Assembly: GCA_964399865.1 (NCBI GenBank)
Contig: CAYNRJ010000001.1
Location: 67,727 to 131,726 of the forward strand
From: an uncultured Candidatus Saccharibacteria bacterium
Lineage (GTDB): Bacteria; Patescibacteriota; Minisyncoccia; Phycocordibacterales; UBA2100
Direction of reading: 5' to 3'
DNA length: 64,000 bases
A program made the translations under genes and the position numbers. Within the stretch, counting starts at the first letter, position 1, and each line of letters begins with the position of its first letter. The notes below the pieces were generated by a model. The model worked only from the letters and a program-made list of their open reading frames with translations. It did not search any database and had not been told where the DNA came from. Positions 3,735 to 45,038 of the stretch are shown one piece after another.

Positions 3735-4124
3735 TTACTTAAAGCCGAATTTTCTCAGGACTTTCACCTCGAGTGCATCCATTTTTTCTCCGTGGTCATA
3801 GCCGAGCAGGTGAAAGCATCCATGCACAAATAGATGGGCGGTTCGATCGATCGTCTTCATGCCGAATGTCTTTGCCTCACGCTCCGCTTTACGAATGTTC
3901 AGAAAGATTTCCCCCTCAATTTTTCCGATAGGGAAGGAAAGCACGTTTGGAGCGTATGTCTTCTTTCGATATTCGCGGTTCATACGACGCGAAAGATTGT
4001 CGCCGCATACAACTATGGAGAGGGAATAGGTCTTCGGTAAGATTGCCTTAGCAATTTTCTCAAATGGAATACGCGGAGTGTTGCTCCGCGTTGTGTTCCG
4101 TATATCTACGCTACCCGTAGGCAT
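3735..4124 (-). CDS. ybeY: rRNA maturation endoribonuclease YbeY
   Basis: H-x3-H-x5-H metal-binding motif (HLFVHGCFHLLGYDH); ~129 aa. Confidence 0.8.
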   Translation of the reverse strand: MPTGSVDIRNTTRSNTPRIPFEKIAKAILPKTYSLSIVVCGDNLSRRMNREYRKKTYAPNVLSFPIGKIEGEIFLNIRKAEREAKTFGMKTIDRTAHLFVHGCFHLLGYDHGEKMDALEVKVLRKFGFK

Positions 4125-4450
4125 TAGTGGGCGATAGGAGCTCCTTCAGGAGCGGTAGGAGTAGCAGACTGCGTTGGAGCGTCTGACTGACCTTGGCGAG
4201 AGTATGGGGAACGGCGAGCTGGGGCTTCAATTACCTTGCCTTCTTTTACAAGTTGGCGGTATTCAGCACGGCGCTTCAAGAGTTTGAGAGCGTGCTTTTT
4301 CTTAACTGTTTTCGATGCACTTCGAGCGTAATAGCGCTGTTTTCGGACAGTTTTTACAAGGCCTGTGCCCTGCACCTTCCTGCTGAATTTGCGAATAGTC
4401 GCAAGGGCGGTTTCGCTGCCTGTTTTCGATACCTCTACGTTTATGGACAT
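4124..4450 (-). CDS. rpsU: 30S ribosomal protein S21-like
   Basis: Basic small protein with an S21-like core (RKFSRKV...KKKHALKLLKRRAEY) and a C-terminal extension. Start placed at the internal ATG (MSINVEV). Overlaps the ybeY start by 1 nt. Confidence 0.5.
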   Translation of the reverse strand: MSINVEVSKTGSETALATIRKFSRKVQGTGLVKTVRKQRYYARSASKTVKKKHALKLLKRRAEYRQLVKEGKVIEAPARRSPYSRQGQSDAPTQSATPTAPEGAPIAH

Positions 4451-4496
4451 GAGAGGGAACTTTAGCATATAAGCCAAAAAACGCAAAGAAGACCCA

Positions 4497-4616
4497 CCAC
4501 TAGGAAGTGAGGGGATTACGTGCTTCGAGGGTGTCTCGCAGGCTGACGAGCCGAGAGGCAGCGCTCCGCCAGCAGGCGGAGACAGCGACCCGAGAAGTAC
4601 GTAATCCCTGAACGCC
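4497..4616 (-). repeat. GC-rich structured repeat element, copy 3 (candidate ncRNA)
   Basis: Reverse complement aligns to copies 1 and 2. Outer arms GGGATTACGTACTTC / GAAGCACGTAATCCC; inner hairpins CUCCGCC-UGCU-GGCGGAG and GGCU-CGUC-AGCC. Begins 5 nt after the stop of the surface-protein gene. Its 3' hairpin plus a U-run forms a terminator before rpsU. Confidence 0.6.
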
Positions 4617-4621
4617 GACCC

Positions 4622-6739
4622 CTACACCTCCTGGAACGTCGGCACAATCCTCACCTTCGACGTCCTCGTCACCGTATCTCCATCAAGCCCAAGACAGGAA
4701 AGAGTGTAGATGGTCTCTTCCTGTATCAGATCAGTACGATTTCCAGAGGCGCCACTCCACGAGCTGCCATTTGTCCTCGTCACGGAGCACGAGCTGACAT
4801 TTCGCACCTCCCAGGTCACAGAGACCGAGCTGCCACGCTGCACTAGAAGAGGACTCACAGTCCAAGTCACCACCTCAGCAGGAGGAGGAGGGGTACATAT
4901 ACCAAGGTTGCACTGATAGCTGCAGGTTGTCACGACTTCTCCGTCGCAGCTGTTCACGACATCTGCTCCTGAACACTCATTGAAACAATTCTGTTCGCAT
5001 ACACCATTTCGTAGGATTTGTCCTGCAGGACACGTAGTGATTGTGGTCTCAGGACACTCAAACGTTCCGGTCCAAGTGACGCGGACTTCTCCACGAGCAC
5101 CATTGCCACCATCTCGCCATCCATTGCCCCCTGCGCCCCCACTTCCAACAGTGACAGGTACTGAGGCTCCAACGGTGAGCGCACCCACAGCATATGTCTT
5201 GGTTGCTCGCCCTCCGCCACCACCGCCACCACCTTCTTGATCAAACCAGACCCATGCACCACTTCCACCTCCTCCAGGAGCACTGCCTGCGTTCCCTGGA
5301 GCTCCTCGAGATGCTGCGGCAACTCCGCCAGCGCCGCCTCCAGTTGGAGCACCTGCACCACCTGTTCCACCTGCGAAGTTTTGCCCAGAGCCTGCGATAC
5401 CATTTCCTCCATTTGCACCTGAGTCACCGCCAGAATACGTTCCCCCTTGAGAAGGAGAGGTGCCGTATATACCAGCACCTCCTCCACGACCGATCAACGT
5501 TGTATTGAAAGAAGAATCACCACCCCTCGTGCCGTTACTGTGTCCGATTCCATCTCCCGCACCTCCACCACCTGCGCCATATACGTCGACACTGAGAGTT
5601 GTGTACGTTGGTACGGTGAACGAAGAAGAGCTGGTGAATACTCGAGTGTTGGATGCTGTATATGATTCACCTGGATCAACTCCTGCAGGGCAGTACCCTG
5701 GAGGGCACTGACTCGCGCTCGCCTGTACTCCTGTGATGTTGGGGCACATGTCAGGGCCACCTCCTCCGCCCCCACCTCCTCCTCCTCCTGGGCACTGAGA
5801 TGCTGAGGTTTGTACTCCTGACATGTTTGGACATGCGTCCTGCACACACTGGCCATTCTGCAGAACGTATCCAGAAGGAACACTGGATTGGTTGCCATTA
5901 ATGTTTGGACAAACGTCAGGTCCACCAGTTGAACACTGTGACGTACTAGTCTGCACTCCTGGCATGTTTGGGCACTTGTCTTCGCATTGATCTGCGAGGT
6001 TGTCCCAATAGTCGGCCTGGCTGTCGTTGCCGATGGATGCGTAGTAGTTGGCGGCGGTGCGGTATTCGGAGCAGGTGGATGGGTCGTCTTTTGGTCCCGG
6101 ATCATTATCACCCGTGTCGGTATCACACTCATTTGGATACACATCGTAATGCGGCTGACCATTTTTTCCTGTGGAGTATACGGAATAGGTGCCACACGGC
6201 GCACTCACGTATGAGAAATCATGGTACGTGTAAGTAGGATCAGAGTCGGCAGTTTTTCCGTCGCCAATCGGAAATGAGTTGACTGTCTCATAATTGTCAT
6301 ACTGCGTAAGATATGTACAATCGTCCCCCACACTTGAGGCCGAGTTTTGCGTCACTACACAATCTTCACCTTCAAAGGCTCCAGAATAATCACCGCCACT
6401 TAGTCCTCCGCCGCTGCTAGAGCAATATTGATCATAGCCGGCATTACACATATCGTCTTCCGAAAAGCAGTAACCACCTTGCTCTATTGGCCGATTCGAA
6501 GGGCAATCCGCATCCTCGCAATAACTTTGATATCCTGCATTGCATAGATCTTCAGGCGGCCAATAACTTGGGTCATGGCAGGCTCCATTTATATCTGCGA
6601 TTTGGTTACCAGAACAAGATCCCGCAGCTTGCAGCTGATATGGAAGGAGAGTGGCAAGGAGGAGCGCAATGAAAGTGAGGAGTATTGTAAGCACTGATGC
6701 GCTCGAGCTTTGAAAATGGGTCAAGGAAGACATATGCAT
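4622..6739 (-). CDS. large secreted/cell-surface protein: signal peptide, Cys-rich N-domain, tandem CPNxxGxQxSxSQC repeats, Gly-rich fibre-like domain, C-terminal Ig-like domain
   Basis: N-terminal hydrophobic signal (LTILLTFIALLLATLL). About four tandem Cys-bounded repeats. Long GGxGG-rich segment resembling phage-fibre/adhesin glycine-rich domains. Clean 705-aa ORF. Confidence 0.65.
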   Translation of the reverse strand: MHMSSLTHFQSSSASVLTILLTFIALLLATLLPYQLQAAGSCSGNQIADINGACHDPSYWPPEDLCNAGYQSYCEDADCPSNRPIEQGGYCFSEDDMCNAGYDQYCSSSGGGLSGGDYSGAFEGEDCVVTQNSASSVGDDCTYLTQYDNYETVNSFPIGDGKTADSDPTYTYHDFSYVSAPCGTYSVYSTGKNGQPHYDVYPNECDTDTGDNDPGPKDDPSTCSEYRTAANYYASIGNDSQADYWDNLADQCEDKCPNMPGVQTSTSQCSTGGPDVCPNINGNQSSVPSGYVLQNGQCVQDACPNMSGVQTSASQCPGGGGGGGGGGGPDMCPNITGVQASASQCPPGYCPAGVDPGESYTASNTRVFTSSSSFTVPTYTTLSVDVYGAGGGGAGDGIGHSNGTRGGDSSFNTTLIGRGGGAGIYGTSPSQGGTYSGGDSGANGGNGIAGSGQNFAGGTGGAGAPTGGGAGGVAAASRGAPGNAGSAPGGGGSGAWVWFDQEGGGGGGGGRATKTYAVGALTVGASVPVTVGSGGAGGNGWRDGGNGARGEVRVTWTGTFECPETTITTCPAGQILRNGVCEQNCFNECSGADVVNSCDGEVVTTCSYQCNLGICTPPPPAEVVTWTVSPLLVQRGSSVSVTWEVRNVSSCSVTRTNGSSWSGASGNRTDLIQEETIYTLSCLGLDGDTVTRTSKVRIVPTFQEV
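5759..5791 (-). repeat. (GGN)11 microsatellite encoding an 11-residue poly-Gly tract inside the surface-protein gene
   Basis: CCTCCTCCGCCCCCACCTCCTCCTCCTCCT on the + strand corresponds to GGGGGGGGGGG in the protein; in-frame length variation is possible. Confidence 0.7.
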
Positions 6740-6978
6740 TATTGAGTAGGAGGGGCGGAAGGTTGCACTGGGAAGGGTGGCATTAAGAGATCAGAAGATC
6801 TGATATTACTTTCCTCCGCCGCGGGAGTATTTGAGTATGCAAAATAGCCAGTCAAAACCGTGAGGAGAATAAATATTAAGATCAAAAAAAGAAGAGCCTT
6901 CAGTAACGTCAGATGATGAACATTCTTCTGCTGCTCTTGCGGTTGAATAGGGGAAGCGAATTGCGACTGTGGAGGCAT
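6739..6978 (-). CDS. small single-pass membrane protein, translationally coupled to the surface-protein gene
   Basis: 78 aa with one TM helix (LLKALLFLILIFILLTVLTGYFAY). Its TAA stop overlaps the ATG of the downstream gene (TAATG). Confidence 0.5.
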   Translation of the reverse strand: MPPQSQFASPIQPQEQQKNVHHLTLLKALLFLILIFILLTVLTGYFAYSNTPAAEESNIRSSDLLMPPFPVQPSAPPTQ

Positions 6979-7040
6979 TCAAAAAGTGTACGATATAAAA
7001 GCAAGAAAATCCGCGAGGAAATAGTGAATTGGGGAAAACT

Positions 7041-7082
7041 AAAAAGCAAAGAGGGTCGCCCGGACGTGGGGCGACCCTCTTG
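7041..7082 (-). terminator. intrinsic terminator of the GC-rich secreted-protein gene
   Basis: Perfect 12-bp stem AGAGGGTCGCCC / GGGCGACCCTCT with a 7-nt loop, followed on the - strand by UGCUUUUUAGUUUU. Confidence 0.7.
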
Positions 7083-7109
7083 ATGAAGGCATTCACGCGG
7101 TGTGAACGC

Positions 7110-7559
7110 CTACATGAGGCCGAGCGCGATCAGCGTTGCGGCGGTCGCCGGTTCGGCATCGTCGTACGGCCCGCAACGGCCGGCCACGACGAAGCGTGCA
7201 CCGCCCTCGTTGTAGGACGAAGAGCCGCAGGCTTCGATCTGGGCATCAGGCCCCCATTGCACGATTGCAGAAGGACCGAAGCCGGTGCCCTGACGCAGCC
7301 ATACGGACACGCCGTTGTTGGGGTTGACGTACGCCGACCAGGTGACGCCACGGTCGTCCGTGACCTCGGCCGTGAAGTACTTCGAGCTCTGGGCGATATC
7401 CGCGAGGATGTCGCCGAACGGCGGCGGAGACGGCGCCATGACGACCACGAACGCCGTCGCTGCCGGCTTCGTATCGTCGACAGAGGCAGCAAGCGCATTC
7501 GGGATGGCCGCGGCAAGCATAAGAGCGGCCGAAGCCGCGATTGCGATACGCTTCATCAT
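7110..7559 (-). CDS. small secreted protein (signal peptide), carried on a GC-rich island
   Basis: Start at MMKRIAIAASAALMLAAAIPNALA preceded by AAAGGAGGG. Region 7029-7700 is visibly much GC-richer than its flanks. Has its own strong terminator. No recognisable domain. Confidence 0.55.
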   Translation of the reverse strand: MMKRIAIAASAALMLAAAIPNALAASVDDTKPAATAFVVVMAPSPPPFGDILADIAQSSKYFTAEVTDDRGVTWSAYVNPNNGVSVWLRQGTGFGPSAIVQWGPDAQIEACGSSSYNEGGARFVVAGRCGPYDDAEPATAATLIALGLM

Positions 7560-7728
7560 CTGATTTGGCCCTCCTTTCAGGCCATGTAAAGTGAAGATCA
7601 GTAGAACCCTGCTCGCCAGAGTGGCGTAGCTAGGTGGTCGCATTCTACCACTCCTTACGGCTCCGTCAAGAGCCGTATGGGCCTCGGAGAGGAGTCAATG
7701 TACCTATTTAGCATGATGACTACTGATG

Positions 7729-7748
7729 CGAAAAAGGCAATAAGCCTT
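7729..7748 (-). terminator. candidate hisS terminator
   Basis: AAGGC-UUAUU-GCCUU hairpin followed by UUUUCGC on the - strand, 16 nt after the hisS stop. Confidence 0.4.
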
Positions 7749-7763
7749 ATGGGATAACTTATT

Positions 7764-8993
7764 TTATCCAGCCACAGCGCTCTTCCACACTCCCATCCGA
7801 TGTCTTTTAAGGTAATTCGTTAATTCAGGAACCGGAACTGCCTCTTGAGAGTTTGTTGCGACCTCACGAACTAGTATCGTGCCCTCAACAGCCTCCTTAT
7901 GTCCCATAATCAGAATGTACGGAGTTGCGTGATGTCTTGCTGCAGCCATCTGTTCGCCAATTCTTTCATGAAGAAGTCCTTGGTGGACCGGAATACTGTC
8001 CTTTCGTAAGGTCTCAAGAATCGAAAGTGATCTACGACGTGCTTCTGCCCCTAGGTGAGCGAAATAAATCGCTGGCAATCCGGCGTTGTCTCTTTTTTGT
8101 CTTGTTGGAACACGTCCGCGGAGTTCACACGTGATACTGATCATCGCAGACGGCATTGATCGACGTGCAAATCTTGCTGCAAGAGGATCGTAGCGGCCTC
8201 CGAAGGCGAGCGAGATGCGTCCTCCTGTTTCTTGATCGAGTGTTGATATCTCAAATAGGGAATGTGACCAGCAATCACGACTTCCAAGTACCTGTGGAGA
8301 GAGTTCGTACGGCAACCCGAACACTTCTAGGTACTCAAGTAGCTCCCAGAATCGTCTTCGCTCTTCTTCTGTAAGATATTCCATCGCCTGAGGCGCGCGC
8401 GGGACAGCAGGGTGTCCTCGTTCGATGAGTTGGACGAGCGCGCCTAGTGGATCTGTAGCTGCGCGAGGGCGAAGTGTCGGCGTAATTGACTCAATATGTT
8501 TTCGTAGATAGGCAGAAACGTCTCGCACGAAGCGATTTGATGACTCCATCGATCCAATGTTGTTCACGGAGAGTACTCGCTTGGAAATTCCCGCTTCCTG
8601 CGCGATTGCATCAGCTACAACTATGAGAAGCGCCTCGGCAATTGCAGAAGAATTTCCCACAACATGCAATTCAAGACCTACACTCGGTATTCCATCGCGC
8701 TCTTTTGCAGAATTTTCGCTCATTCGCCATACAAGCACCGGTTTTTCCGGGGTTTGTGCGCAAGAAATACACTTTCGAGCGGAAACAGCGAGTGGTCGCT
8801 CCTCGCGGCGTGCGAACATGATTTCCGATGGATCGCGCTTCGACTGAACTGGCTTTGGTTCGCCGCTTCTTGCTTGGCGAGAAGTTTTCATTGACTCTTC
8901 GAGCGATGAAAATCCGTAATATTCTGCGATACGGATAGCCGATGAAAGAAATCCGGCGGTATTTTGATGCTGAGTATCTTTTAGACGGATCAT
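7764..8993 (-). CDS. hisS: class IIa aminoacyl-tRNA synthetase, histidyl-tRNA synthetase-like
   Basis: GGRYD motif-3 region and C-terminal class II anticodon-binding domain (ILIMGHKE...). N-terminal motif 1/2 region is divergent. Confidence 0.6.
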   Translation of the reverse strand: MIRLKDTQHQNTAGFLSSAIRIAEYYGFSSLEESMKTSRQARSGEPKPVQSKRDPSEIMFARREERPLAVSARKCISCAQTPEKPVLVWRMSENSAKERDGIPSVGLELHVVGNSSAIAEALLIVVADAIAQEAGISKRVLSVNNIGSMESSNRFVRDVSAYLRKHIESITPTLRPRAATDPLGALVQLIERGHPAVPRAPQAMEYLTEEERRRFWELLEYLEVFGLPYELSPQVLGSRDCWSHSLFEISTLDQETGGRISLAFGGRYDPLAARFARRSMPSAMISITCELRGRVPTRQKRDNAGLPAIYFAHLGAEARRRSLSILETLRKDSIPVHQGLLHERIGEQMAAARHHATPYILIMGHKEAVEGTILVREVATNSQEAVPVPELTNYLKRHRMGVWKSAVAG

Positions 8994-9071: not shown

Positions 9072-9692
9072 CTACTCTTCAAATTTCGCTTCTCCGGGAA
9101 GTACACCAATGCGATCAAAAGGGAATAAACGAAGGAATGCGCGGCCAACAATGTTCTCTCGAGGGAGTGGTCCCCAAATGCGGGAGTCAGAAGATACGTG
9201 ACGATTGTCTCCCATCACGAAATATTCGTCTGCACCAAGCGTAATTTGCATATCATTTCTGCCGCCAAGGTTTGTCGGGTCAAGATACGGCTCATCGAGT
9301 AGGAATCCATCGGGATTTGCGGCGTTTTCTATAGTAATTCCCTCAGGAGTGATGATTACTTTCTCATTTGGGAGGCCAATGACGCGCTTTATGAGTGATT
9401 TACTCGGTGTTCCTGGCAATCCAAACACAATAACGTCTCCTCTTGAGGGGTTTTCAAGCGTGTAGGTGATGCGATCGACGACGAGGTAGTTACCGTCGTG
9501 GAATGTTGGGTCCATAGATGCTCCGTCGACGAGATATGGCGCTGCAACGAAGAATCGAATGATGAGTGCGAAGCCAAGTGCGAGGATAAAATAGAAAAAG
9601 AGGGAGCGAGAAGACGTTTTTGGAGTCGGCGCAGGAGAAATTGTATCCAGTGATAAATCTTTTTCGATCACAGGAACATTCATGCGCGGCAT
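9072..9692 (-). CDS. lepB: signal peptidase I
   Basis: N-terminal TM anchor; boxes B (GASMDPTF) and E (GDNRHVSSDSRIWG) of SPase I. Confidence 0.85.
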   Translation of the reverse strand: MPRMNVPVIEKDLSLDTISPAPTPKTSSRSLFFYFILALGFALIIRFFVAAPYLVDGASMDPTFHDGNYLVVDRITYTLENPSRGDVIVFGLPGTPSKSLIKRVIGLPNEKVIITPEGITIENAANPDGFLLDEPYLDPTNLGGRNDMQITLGADEYFVMGDNRHVSSDSRIWGPLPRENIVGRAFLRLFPFDRIGVLPGEAKFEE

Positions 9693-44476: not shown

Positions 44477-44555
44477 ACGTCCTTGACGAAGGATGCTAGG
44501 GATTGCTAAATTTCCCCGGGTTCAATGTCGGGCCTGAATTCACATGGAGGCGGAT

Positions 44556-45038
44556 ATGTCCGCGTATTGGGAGCTCAGAATCAGGACGGGAAGTCGGTCA
44601 GTTGAGGATATGTTGCGTGAGATGGGCGCAACAAGGCATGTCGACTGGGAGGTGGGGGAGATCATCAGGGAGTCAGGTGTCACCCAAATCGACGCCGGTG
44701 AGTATTCGTTTGCTGCGCTGTTCGGCTACGAATTCGATGACGGCTGGAGAAGGACTGGTGACATCACAAGCCAAGCCCGTCGTCTCTCGTATCACCACCC
44801 GAGAGTGGAGCACGCGATCTTGCTGGGCTTGCAGCCGCAGGCGCTGTTACCGGCGCACATGAGCGTGGTCTTCCATCCTCCCGTAACTGTCAGGTCGGTT
44901 TCGAGTGATGCTCTTCGACCGCGCATGATTGCGTTTGGGGAGAGTTCGGGGAGCCGGTGCTACGCGAGTGCTCCAAGATCGGATGCTTCCGGCGAATGGT
45001 ACCCGGACAGAGCGTTCGTCTTCCTGAATCCGAGATAG
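44556..45038 (+). CDS. hypothetical protein on a GC-rich island, in the position usually occupied by rpmA
   Basis: GGAGGC RBS 5 nt upstream. Putative promoter TTGACG-18-TAAATT. High GC3. Own terminator at 45044-45078. No recognisable domain. Confidence 0.45.
   Translation: MSAYWELRIRTGSRSVEDMLREMGATRHVDWEVGEIIRESGVTQIDAGEYSFAALFGYEFDDGWRRTGDITSQARRLSYHHPRVEHAILLGLQPQALLPAHMSVVFHPPVTVRSVSSDALRPRMIAFGESSGSRCYASAPRSDASGEWYPDRAFVFLNPR

Follow-up and report, generated by a model that had tools for sequence, protein, structure and literature searches.

In this Kaiserbacteria-like genome, orf149 is best explained as a recent acquisition, unameliorated and self-contained, whose small protein product is probably secreted; we favor this reading with moderate confidence. 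This confidence is a joint one: it also covers the proposition that orf149 truly codes for a protein and that its evolution took place in a genome of high GC. Our window, i.e., the whole stretch of DNA that was analysed (64,000 nucleotides, 64 kb), has the gene order trxB, ftsZ, ftsA, ybeY, rpsU (S21), big705, tm79, orf149, hisS, lepB, pth, rpsA. The features to which the text refers are:

7764-8993, minus strand: hisS, encoding a HisRS homologue
7677..7656, minus strand: 9-bp hairpin UACGGCUCU-UGAC-GGAGCCGUA, from the fold of 7557-7700, its loop containing the -35 box
7669..7642, minus strand: sigma-70-type promoter-like site, TTGACG (7669-7664), 16-nt spacer, TG-extended TAGAAT (7647-7642)
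7577-7569, minus strand: Shine-Dalgarno sequence AAAGGAGGG, with the ATG 9 nt downstream
7559..7110, minus strand: orf149, 450 nt including the stop codon, 149 aa, a singleton protein
7559..7488, minus strand: predicted Sec/SPase I signal peptide, codons 1-24, by sequence rules and hydropathy
7111..7087, minus strand: 10-bp hairpin, from folding, overlapping the orf149 stop codon
7081..7039, minus strand: intrinsic terminator, a 13-bp perfect stem AAGAGGGTCGCCC / GGGCGACCCTCTT (7081..7049) with a 7-nt loop, followed by TGCTTTTTAG
6978..6739, minus strand: tm79, the first of the two operon genes, for a single-pass membrane protein of 79 aa, GC native-like at 44.6%, a singleton
6739..4622, minus strand: big705, a protein of 705 aa, rich in Gly and Cys, that has a hydrophobic segment at the N-terminus
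4124-4486: rpsU (S21), the gene bordering the insert opposite hisS
4487..7763: lineage-specific insert between hisS and rpsU, 3,277 bp, with orf149, tm79 and big705

Composition and Start of orf149

An earlier note on this DNA had described a GC-rich cassette with a 450-nt ORF on the minus strand, a classic signal peptide, a strong Shine-Dalgarno sequence, and a terminator made of a GC stem and a U-tract. All of these were found again: the ORF at 7559..7110 (149 aa), the Sec/SPase I features, judged by rules, at its N-terminus, the Shine-Dalgarno sequence at 7577-7569, and the terminator with a perfect stem that measures 13 bp. The deviation in GC also holds. The GC content of orf149 is 65.6% as compared to a window mean of 48.9%, its segment has a z of 5.3 among 450-nt sliding windows of the 64 kb, and all such windows with at least 60% GC overlap it, which makes it the sole segment of this kind in the window; correspondingly, the 500-nt bin 7001-7500 has the highest GC among 128 bins. 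GC1, GC2 and GC3 are 0.633, 0.547 and 0.787, respectively, and the order GC3 > GC1 > GC2 is the signature of a gene that evolved at high GC. In the window's 56 other long ORFs the GC3 is far lower (0.48 ± 0.06, the runner-up reaching 0.675; z = 5.8 for orf149), and the genes flanking orf149 have a GC3 of 0.41-0.52. The whole GC-rich block (about 660 bp, 62.6% GC) extends from about 7040 to about 7700, in agreement with the extent it had first been given, and has abrupt edges on both sides.

A second, milder outlier in composition is found at 44544-45038 (plus strand), a 164-aa ORF with a GC of 0.58, a GC3 of 0.67 and no Pfam match, which may be another foreign gene.

The translation of 7559..7110 (minus strand) begins with MMKRIAIAASAALMLAAAIPNALA and continues with ASVDD. 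Some public gene calls (P0004) use a 177-aa alternative starting with ATG 7643, which is preceded by AAGGAG at a distance of 7 nt. The 149-aa form is preferred because the 28 extra codons of the longer form (7560-7643, minus strand) have a GC3 of only 0.54 and because ATG 7643 sits within the predicted -10 box; the stretch 7560-7643 is probably leader sequence rather than coding. With the 149-aa start the signal peptide is exactly N-terminal and has the strong Shine-Dalgarno sequence directly ahead of it, and the placement of the promoter-like site suits this start and not that of the 177-aa form.

Expression Signals

The promoter-like site upstream of orf149 agrees with the consensus in 10 of 12 positions and has a TG ahead of the -10 box. 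As a promoter of orf149 it is suggestive only, 2 such sites being observed in the region against 1.3 expected. The earlier note had also described the 5′ untranslated region as highly structured. The complementary words do exist, but the pairings GAGTGG/CCACTC and GTGGT/ACCAC use common GTGG bases and are therefore mutually exclusive, and the stems overlap the predicted -10 box, so that they would lie in part outside the transcribed region. The stretch between the predicted transcription start and the ATG folds with a z of only −2.1 (5 of 200 shuffles equally stable). For the full 144 nt upstream (7557-7700) the value is −3.4 (0 of 200 shuffles equally stable), which is largely due to the 9-bp hairpin at 7677..7656.

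Much more pronounced is the structure at the 3′ end, where both hairpins together fold with −41.3 kcal/mol, as compared to −18.6 ± 2.8 kcal/mol for shuffled sequences (z = −8.0; 0 of 200 equally stable). Nine of the 13 pairs in the terminator stem are G-C. Neither the leader nor the 3′ end matches a family in Rfam, which at E ≤ 5 returned only sub-threshold, chance-level hits, and a riboswitch or small RNA in these regions was rejected on that ground. To judge from its predicted signals, the cassette is self-contained, comprising a promoter-like site, a Shine-Dalgarno sequence, the ORF and a terminator.

The Predicted Product

The N-terminus of orf149 combines the features by which Sec/SPase I signal peptides are recognized: a positively charged n-region, a hydrophobic h-region of 7-15 residues, and residues that are small and neutral at both −3 and −1. 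The n-region is MMKR (+2), the h-region IAIAASAALMLAAAI has a mean Kyte-Doolittle hydropathy of 2.44, a P is at −5, and cleavage is predicted between ALA and ASVDD, with A-L-A at −3 to −1. A signal peptidase I is encoded by the host (lepB at 9072-9692; Peptidase_S26, E 3e-43). The protein has no lipobox L-[AS]-[GA]-C, its first Cys being residue 111, and no twin-arginine (Tat) motif, the n-region having KR rather than RR. A search with NCBIfam at E ≤ 10, both of the last 30 residues and of the whole protein, revealed no C-terminal sorting signal (LPXTG, PEP-CTERM or relatives). At its C-terminus the protein has a hydrophobic tail of 12 residues, ATAATLIALGLM, that is too short to span a membrane, and it ends with AEPATAATLIALGLM, i.e., without a basic tail. 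A PEP-CTERM-like reading of AEPATAATLIALGLM was rejected for lack of both an NCBIfam model and this basic tail.

The mature protein is acidic (13 D/E vs. 6 K/R) and the two Cys of orf149 are C111 and C129. Residues 67-74 (TDDRGVTW) resemble one copy of the Asp-box, S/T-x-D-x-G-x-T-W, a hairpin motif that is usually repeated; the score with BNR/Asp-box PF02012 is 13.3 bits as compared to a cut-off of 27 (E 0.09), and matches to sialidases in the PDB are weak (E 1.5). A single motif of this kind would indicate a beta-hairpin at most. AlphaFold2 without alignment yielded all-beta models of the full and of the mature protein with a pLDDT of 38.7 and 41.4, respectively, which are unusable.

From these features we infer that transcription of orf149 would begin at a promoter of its own and translation at MMKR, and that its product would be exported by Sec and cut by signal peptidase I after Ala24. 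The cleavage would release an acidic, beta-rich 125-aa protein with C111 and C129 outside the cell, where it may have an extracellular or cell-surface accessory role.

Search for Relatives

In a word-indexed search of 5.8 billion clusters orf149 matched only itself, and when 1.84 billion representatives were searched exhaustively with HMMER, only orf149 and two repeat-summation artefacts (P0002 and P0003) came back. Altogether, about 15 billion proteins yielded no homologue; Pfam (to E ≤ 10), NCBIfam, PHROGs, PADLOC and the PDB sequences contained no relative, and none turned up in metagenome, viral, plasmid and phage scans. Matches to E. coli obtained by tblastn (E about 0.1) were discarded as noise. 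At the level of sequence comparison orf149 is thus a strict singleton outside any known family.

P0002 is a protein of 7,153 aa with DUF285 and Big_2 repeats, which in the exhaustive HMMER search had an E-value of 1e-18 with orf149. The 83.7 bits of its total score accumulate over 41 near-identical repeats, none of which alone matches with more than 12.4 bits. There is some local likeness around PFGD and NNG-V (29% identity over about 90 residues), and shuffled orf149 queries score lower against P0002 than the real query. However, a profile of 59 P0002 repeats gave only 2 bits with orf149, the hhalign probability was 1.1%, and no Pfam Big_2 match appeared at E ≤ 10, for which reasons homology to the Big_2 Ig-like family (PF02368) was rejected. 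P0003 was rejected as a relative because its match is a low-complexity repeat match over residues 25-51. It should be noted that giant proteins with dozens of near-identical repeats can strongly inflate E-values in exhaustive HMMER searches, P0002 being a case in point.

The hisS-rpsU Junction

Scans with the HisRS homologue yielded 59 genome loci and 80 metagenome loci with at most 75% identity; closer relatives were not found in the genome or metagenome collections. The genome loci are labeled Kaiserbacteria, Parcubacteria, Paceibacterota or, in third-party assemblies, "Saccharibacteria." The host is a Kaiserbacteria-like Patescibacterium with about 49% GC. In its relatives the order S1-pth-lepB-hisS-rpsU-ybeY-ftsA-ftsZ-trxB is kept, and in 125 of the related loci (52 genome and 73 metagenome loci) hisS adjoins rpsU. 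The gap, mostly below 200 bp, is at most 190 bp in 43 of the 52 genome loci (median 73 bp) and below 300 bp in 59 of the 73 metagenome loci; the 3,277 bp of our window are the largest hisS-rpsU gap seen. Not one of the 125 loci has orf149, tm79 or big705 at this site. The search for homologues in metagenomes and the comparison with relatives, both suggested by the earlier note, thus ended with none found and with the cassette absent at the orthologous site throughout.

Other inserts, unrelated to that in our window, were found between hisS and rpsU in 9 of the 52 genome loci and 14 of the 73 metagenome loci (about 18% of the 125). They are 0.4-1.6 kb long and encode, for example, a HAD hydrolase, a Nudix-like protein, a methyltransferase, Asd, or secreted or membrane proteins (insert-bearing loci include L011, L015-L017, L019, L023, L024, L039, L055, L083-L086, L091, L092, L098, L128, L134 and L138). 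In Kaiserbacteria-like genomes, insertions therefore recur at the hisS-rpsU junction. The sequences of L003 and L056 are too divergent for an alignment with them to fix the exact insertion borders.

The HisRS homologue (7764-8993, minus strand) is very divergent: it has 119 bits with TIGR00442 as compared to a cut-off of 286.75, and the Pfam catalytic domain appears only with E 0.05; its anticodon-binding domain is clear and its position is conserved in 139 of 139 related loci. The spacer between big705 and rpsU (4487-4621; 135 bp, 63% GC) contains a hairpin of roughly 100 nt, the arms of which (4512-4532 and 4588-4608) are 86% complementary; the fold of the whole spacer has a z of −2.6, and the spacer has neither an Rfam match nor a second copy in the window.

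Probable Acquisition of orf149 and its Possible Donor

We propose that orf149 would have entered the region downstream of hisS recently, as a unit of about 660 bp. The likeliest route would be illegitimate recombination of foreign DNA that the cell had taken up, since an integrase, a transposase, a tRNA and a flanking repeat are all absent. The neighbors of the cassette are housekeeping genes, with no integrase nearby; its borders have no direct or inverted repeats of at least 7 nt, and the window contains neither a repeat family nor further copies of the hairpin arms. A transposon or MITE was rejected on the basis of these missing repeats, and an integron cassette because GTTRRRY/RYYYAAC core sites are absent around the 3′ hairpin, the terminator stem being perfect rather than imperfect as in attC. 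Viewed as a genomic islet, the cassette has a deviant composition and is absent at the orthologous site; mobility signatures and an identifiable donor are missing. That the acquisition was recent is suggested by the composition, the nearest relatives having 75% HisRS identity.

With respect to the donor, Patescibacteria commonly have genomic islands and genes that were transferred singly, and for most of these transfers the source is another Patescibacterium (Gios et al., 2025, mSystems, PMC12455944). By analogy, a high-GC Patescibacterial donor of orf149 is plausible. Patescibacteria of high GC do exist, an example being the CPR locus L065 with 62.5% GC and a GC3 of 0.73-0.78. An under-sampled donor of this kind would also explain why orf149 has no homologue.

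It is conceivable, if unlikely, that orf149 is a neutral passenger, i.e., a donor gene in a foreign fragment that is unexpressed or useless in its new host and awaits deletion. As would be expected of a passenger, orf149 is a singleton without conservation and its unameliorated codon usage is far from that of the host. Furthermore, its copies are all clonal and without a sign of selection: five contigs, from four sequencing runs (SRR14271372 with a 108 kb contig, SRR14271366, SRR13076588 and SRR13076587) and the NCBI genome (613 kb contig), are 100% identical over both junctions, and dN/dS is not computable because all copies are identical in DNA. Against the passenger reading, the same allele is present in four runs of two SRA accession series. 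The ORF is also intact, with a complete set of promoter-like, Shine-Dalgarno and terminator signals, and streamlined genomes of about 0.6 Mb would be expected to shed useless DNA fast.

The Neighbors tm79 and big705

The earlier note had correctly placed the cassette next to an operon for a surface protein and a small membrane protein, namely tm79-big705, and had proposed that the two may act together at the cell surface. tm79 and big705 overlap by 1 nt and have a native-like GC3 of 0.425 and 0.442, respectively. For tm79 no homologue was found. With Pfam Gly_rich_2, big705 has an E-value of 0.019, which does not reach the cut-off, and its relatives are only partial and distant (at most 20% coverage, mainly of the C-terminal ~125 residues). 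In other CPR genomes these relatives are encoded either within the S10-L3 ribosomal cluster or in the company of further large, Gly-rich proteins.

The C-terminal domain of big705 (residues ~580-704; 4622-4990) recurs at the C-termini of several large Gly-rich secreted proteins of other CPR genomes, for example in L065 (2024-2455, 4632-5081, 7403-7891 and 10110-10502) and also in L064 and L049/L145. In L065 and L066 these genes are flanked by rpsJ (S10), which is duplicated in L065, on one side and by rplC on the other, which means that a core ribosomal operon is interrupted.

We consider it rather improbable that the tm79-big705 surface module has orf149 as a functional partner, for instance as a secreted subunit or cofactor in host attachment. 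The idea derives from adjacency: orf149 is next to tm79-big705 on the same strand and in the same lineage-specific insert, and all three proteins have N-terminal export or membrane segments. However, orf149 and tm79-big705 are separate transcription units with the double hairpin (−41 kcal/mol) and a T-tract between them. Nor does co-occurrence offer support, orf149 and tm79 being singletons and the neighborhoods of big705 relatives that were examined being without an orf149-like gene. Finally, the GC3 of orf149 differs so much from that of tm79 and big705 that a separate, later arrival of orf149 is implied; the simplest reading is that the insert was built in two events, of which that of orf149 was the later. 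Even more doubtful is the most far-reaching version, in which orf149 came from a high-GC host or partner of the Kaiserbacterium and encodes a secreted effector or adhesin cofactor of new fold that acts together with big705 in episymbiosis.

Two further explanations are very improbable. An assembly or binning chimera, with a GC-rich block from another organism misjoined into the contig, would account for the abrupt compositional borders, but both junctions are the same base for base in five independently assembled contigs, including those of 108 kb and 613 kb, and the block is a neat transcription unit set exactly between two native genes. Equally, the functional product might be the 186-aa ORF of the plus strand (7029-7589) or a structured non-coding RNA, in favor of which are the length of this ORF and the folding of the upstream and 3′ regions, which is better than that of shuffled sequences, but the ORF is the in-register antisense frame of orf149, Arg-rich, with GC1 > GC3 and without a Shine-Dalgarno sequence, signal features, Pfam match or homologue, the Rfam hits are at chance level, and the T-tract, being on the minus-strand side, lets the terminator serve that strand only.

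Significance and Comparison with Known Systems

With orf149 read as a laterally acquired gene, the cassette is a clean case of single-gene acquisition in an ultra-small, streamlined CPR genome, in which the gene retains a foreign codon usage together with expression signals of its own, at a junction where many relatives have taken up other accessory genes. The donor, if ever found, could hint at a physical partner of the uncultured Kaiserbacterium and, should the gene have been captured from the host, its identity would point to that host. The protein, if shown to be secreted, would become a candidate for a strain-specific role in surface or host interaction.

Compared with Big_2 (PF02368) as present in P0002, orf149 is alike in the region of PFGD and NNG-V and differs in having no significant match to the domain profile. 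With small proteins exported via Sec and SPase I it shares the tripartite signal ending in A-X-A, the host having a signal peptidase I; in contrast to these, its mature part is in no family, and a lipobox, a Tat motif and a C-terminal sorting signal are absent. With the islands of Patescibacteria (PMC12455944) the cassette has in common that it is DNA of foreign composition and hypothetical content in a streamlined CPR genome, for which a Patescibacterial donor is plausible. It differs from them in being only about 660 bp long, with one gene and without mobility gene, tRNA, border repeat or traceable donor.

ORFan genes are reportedly enriched in prokaryotic genomic islands. As a homologue-free gene in a deviant, lineage-specific insert, orf149 is an instance of this pattern without substantial difference. 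The protein lies outside the known families; the anatomy of orf149 indicates no new kind of system, and its acquisition is an ordinary event in these bacteria, following the known pattern of orphan genes in small islands.
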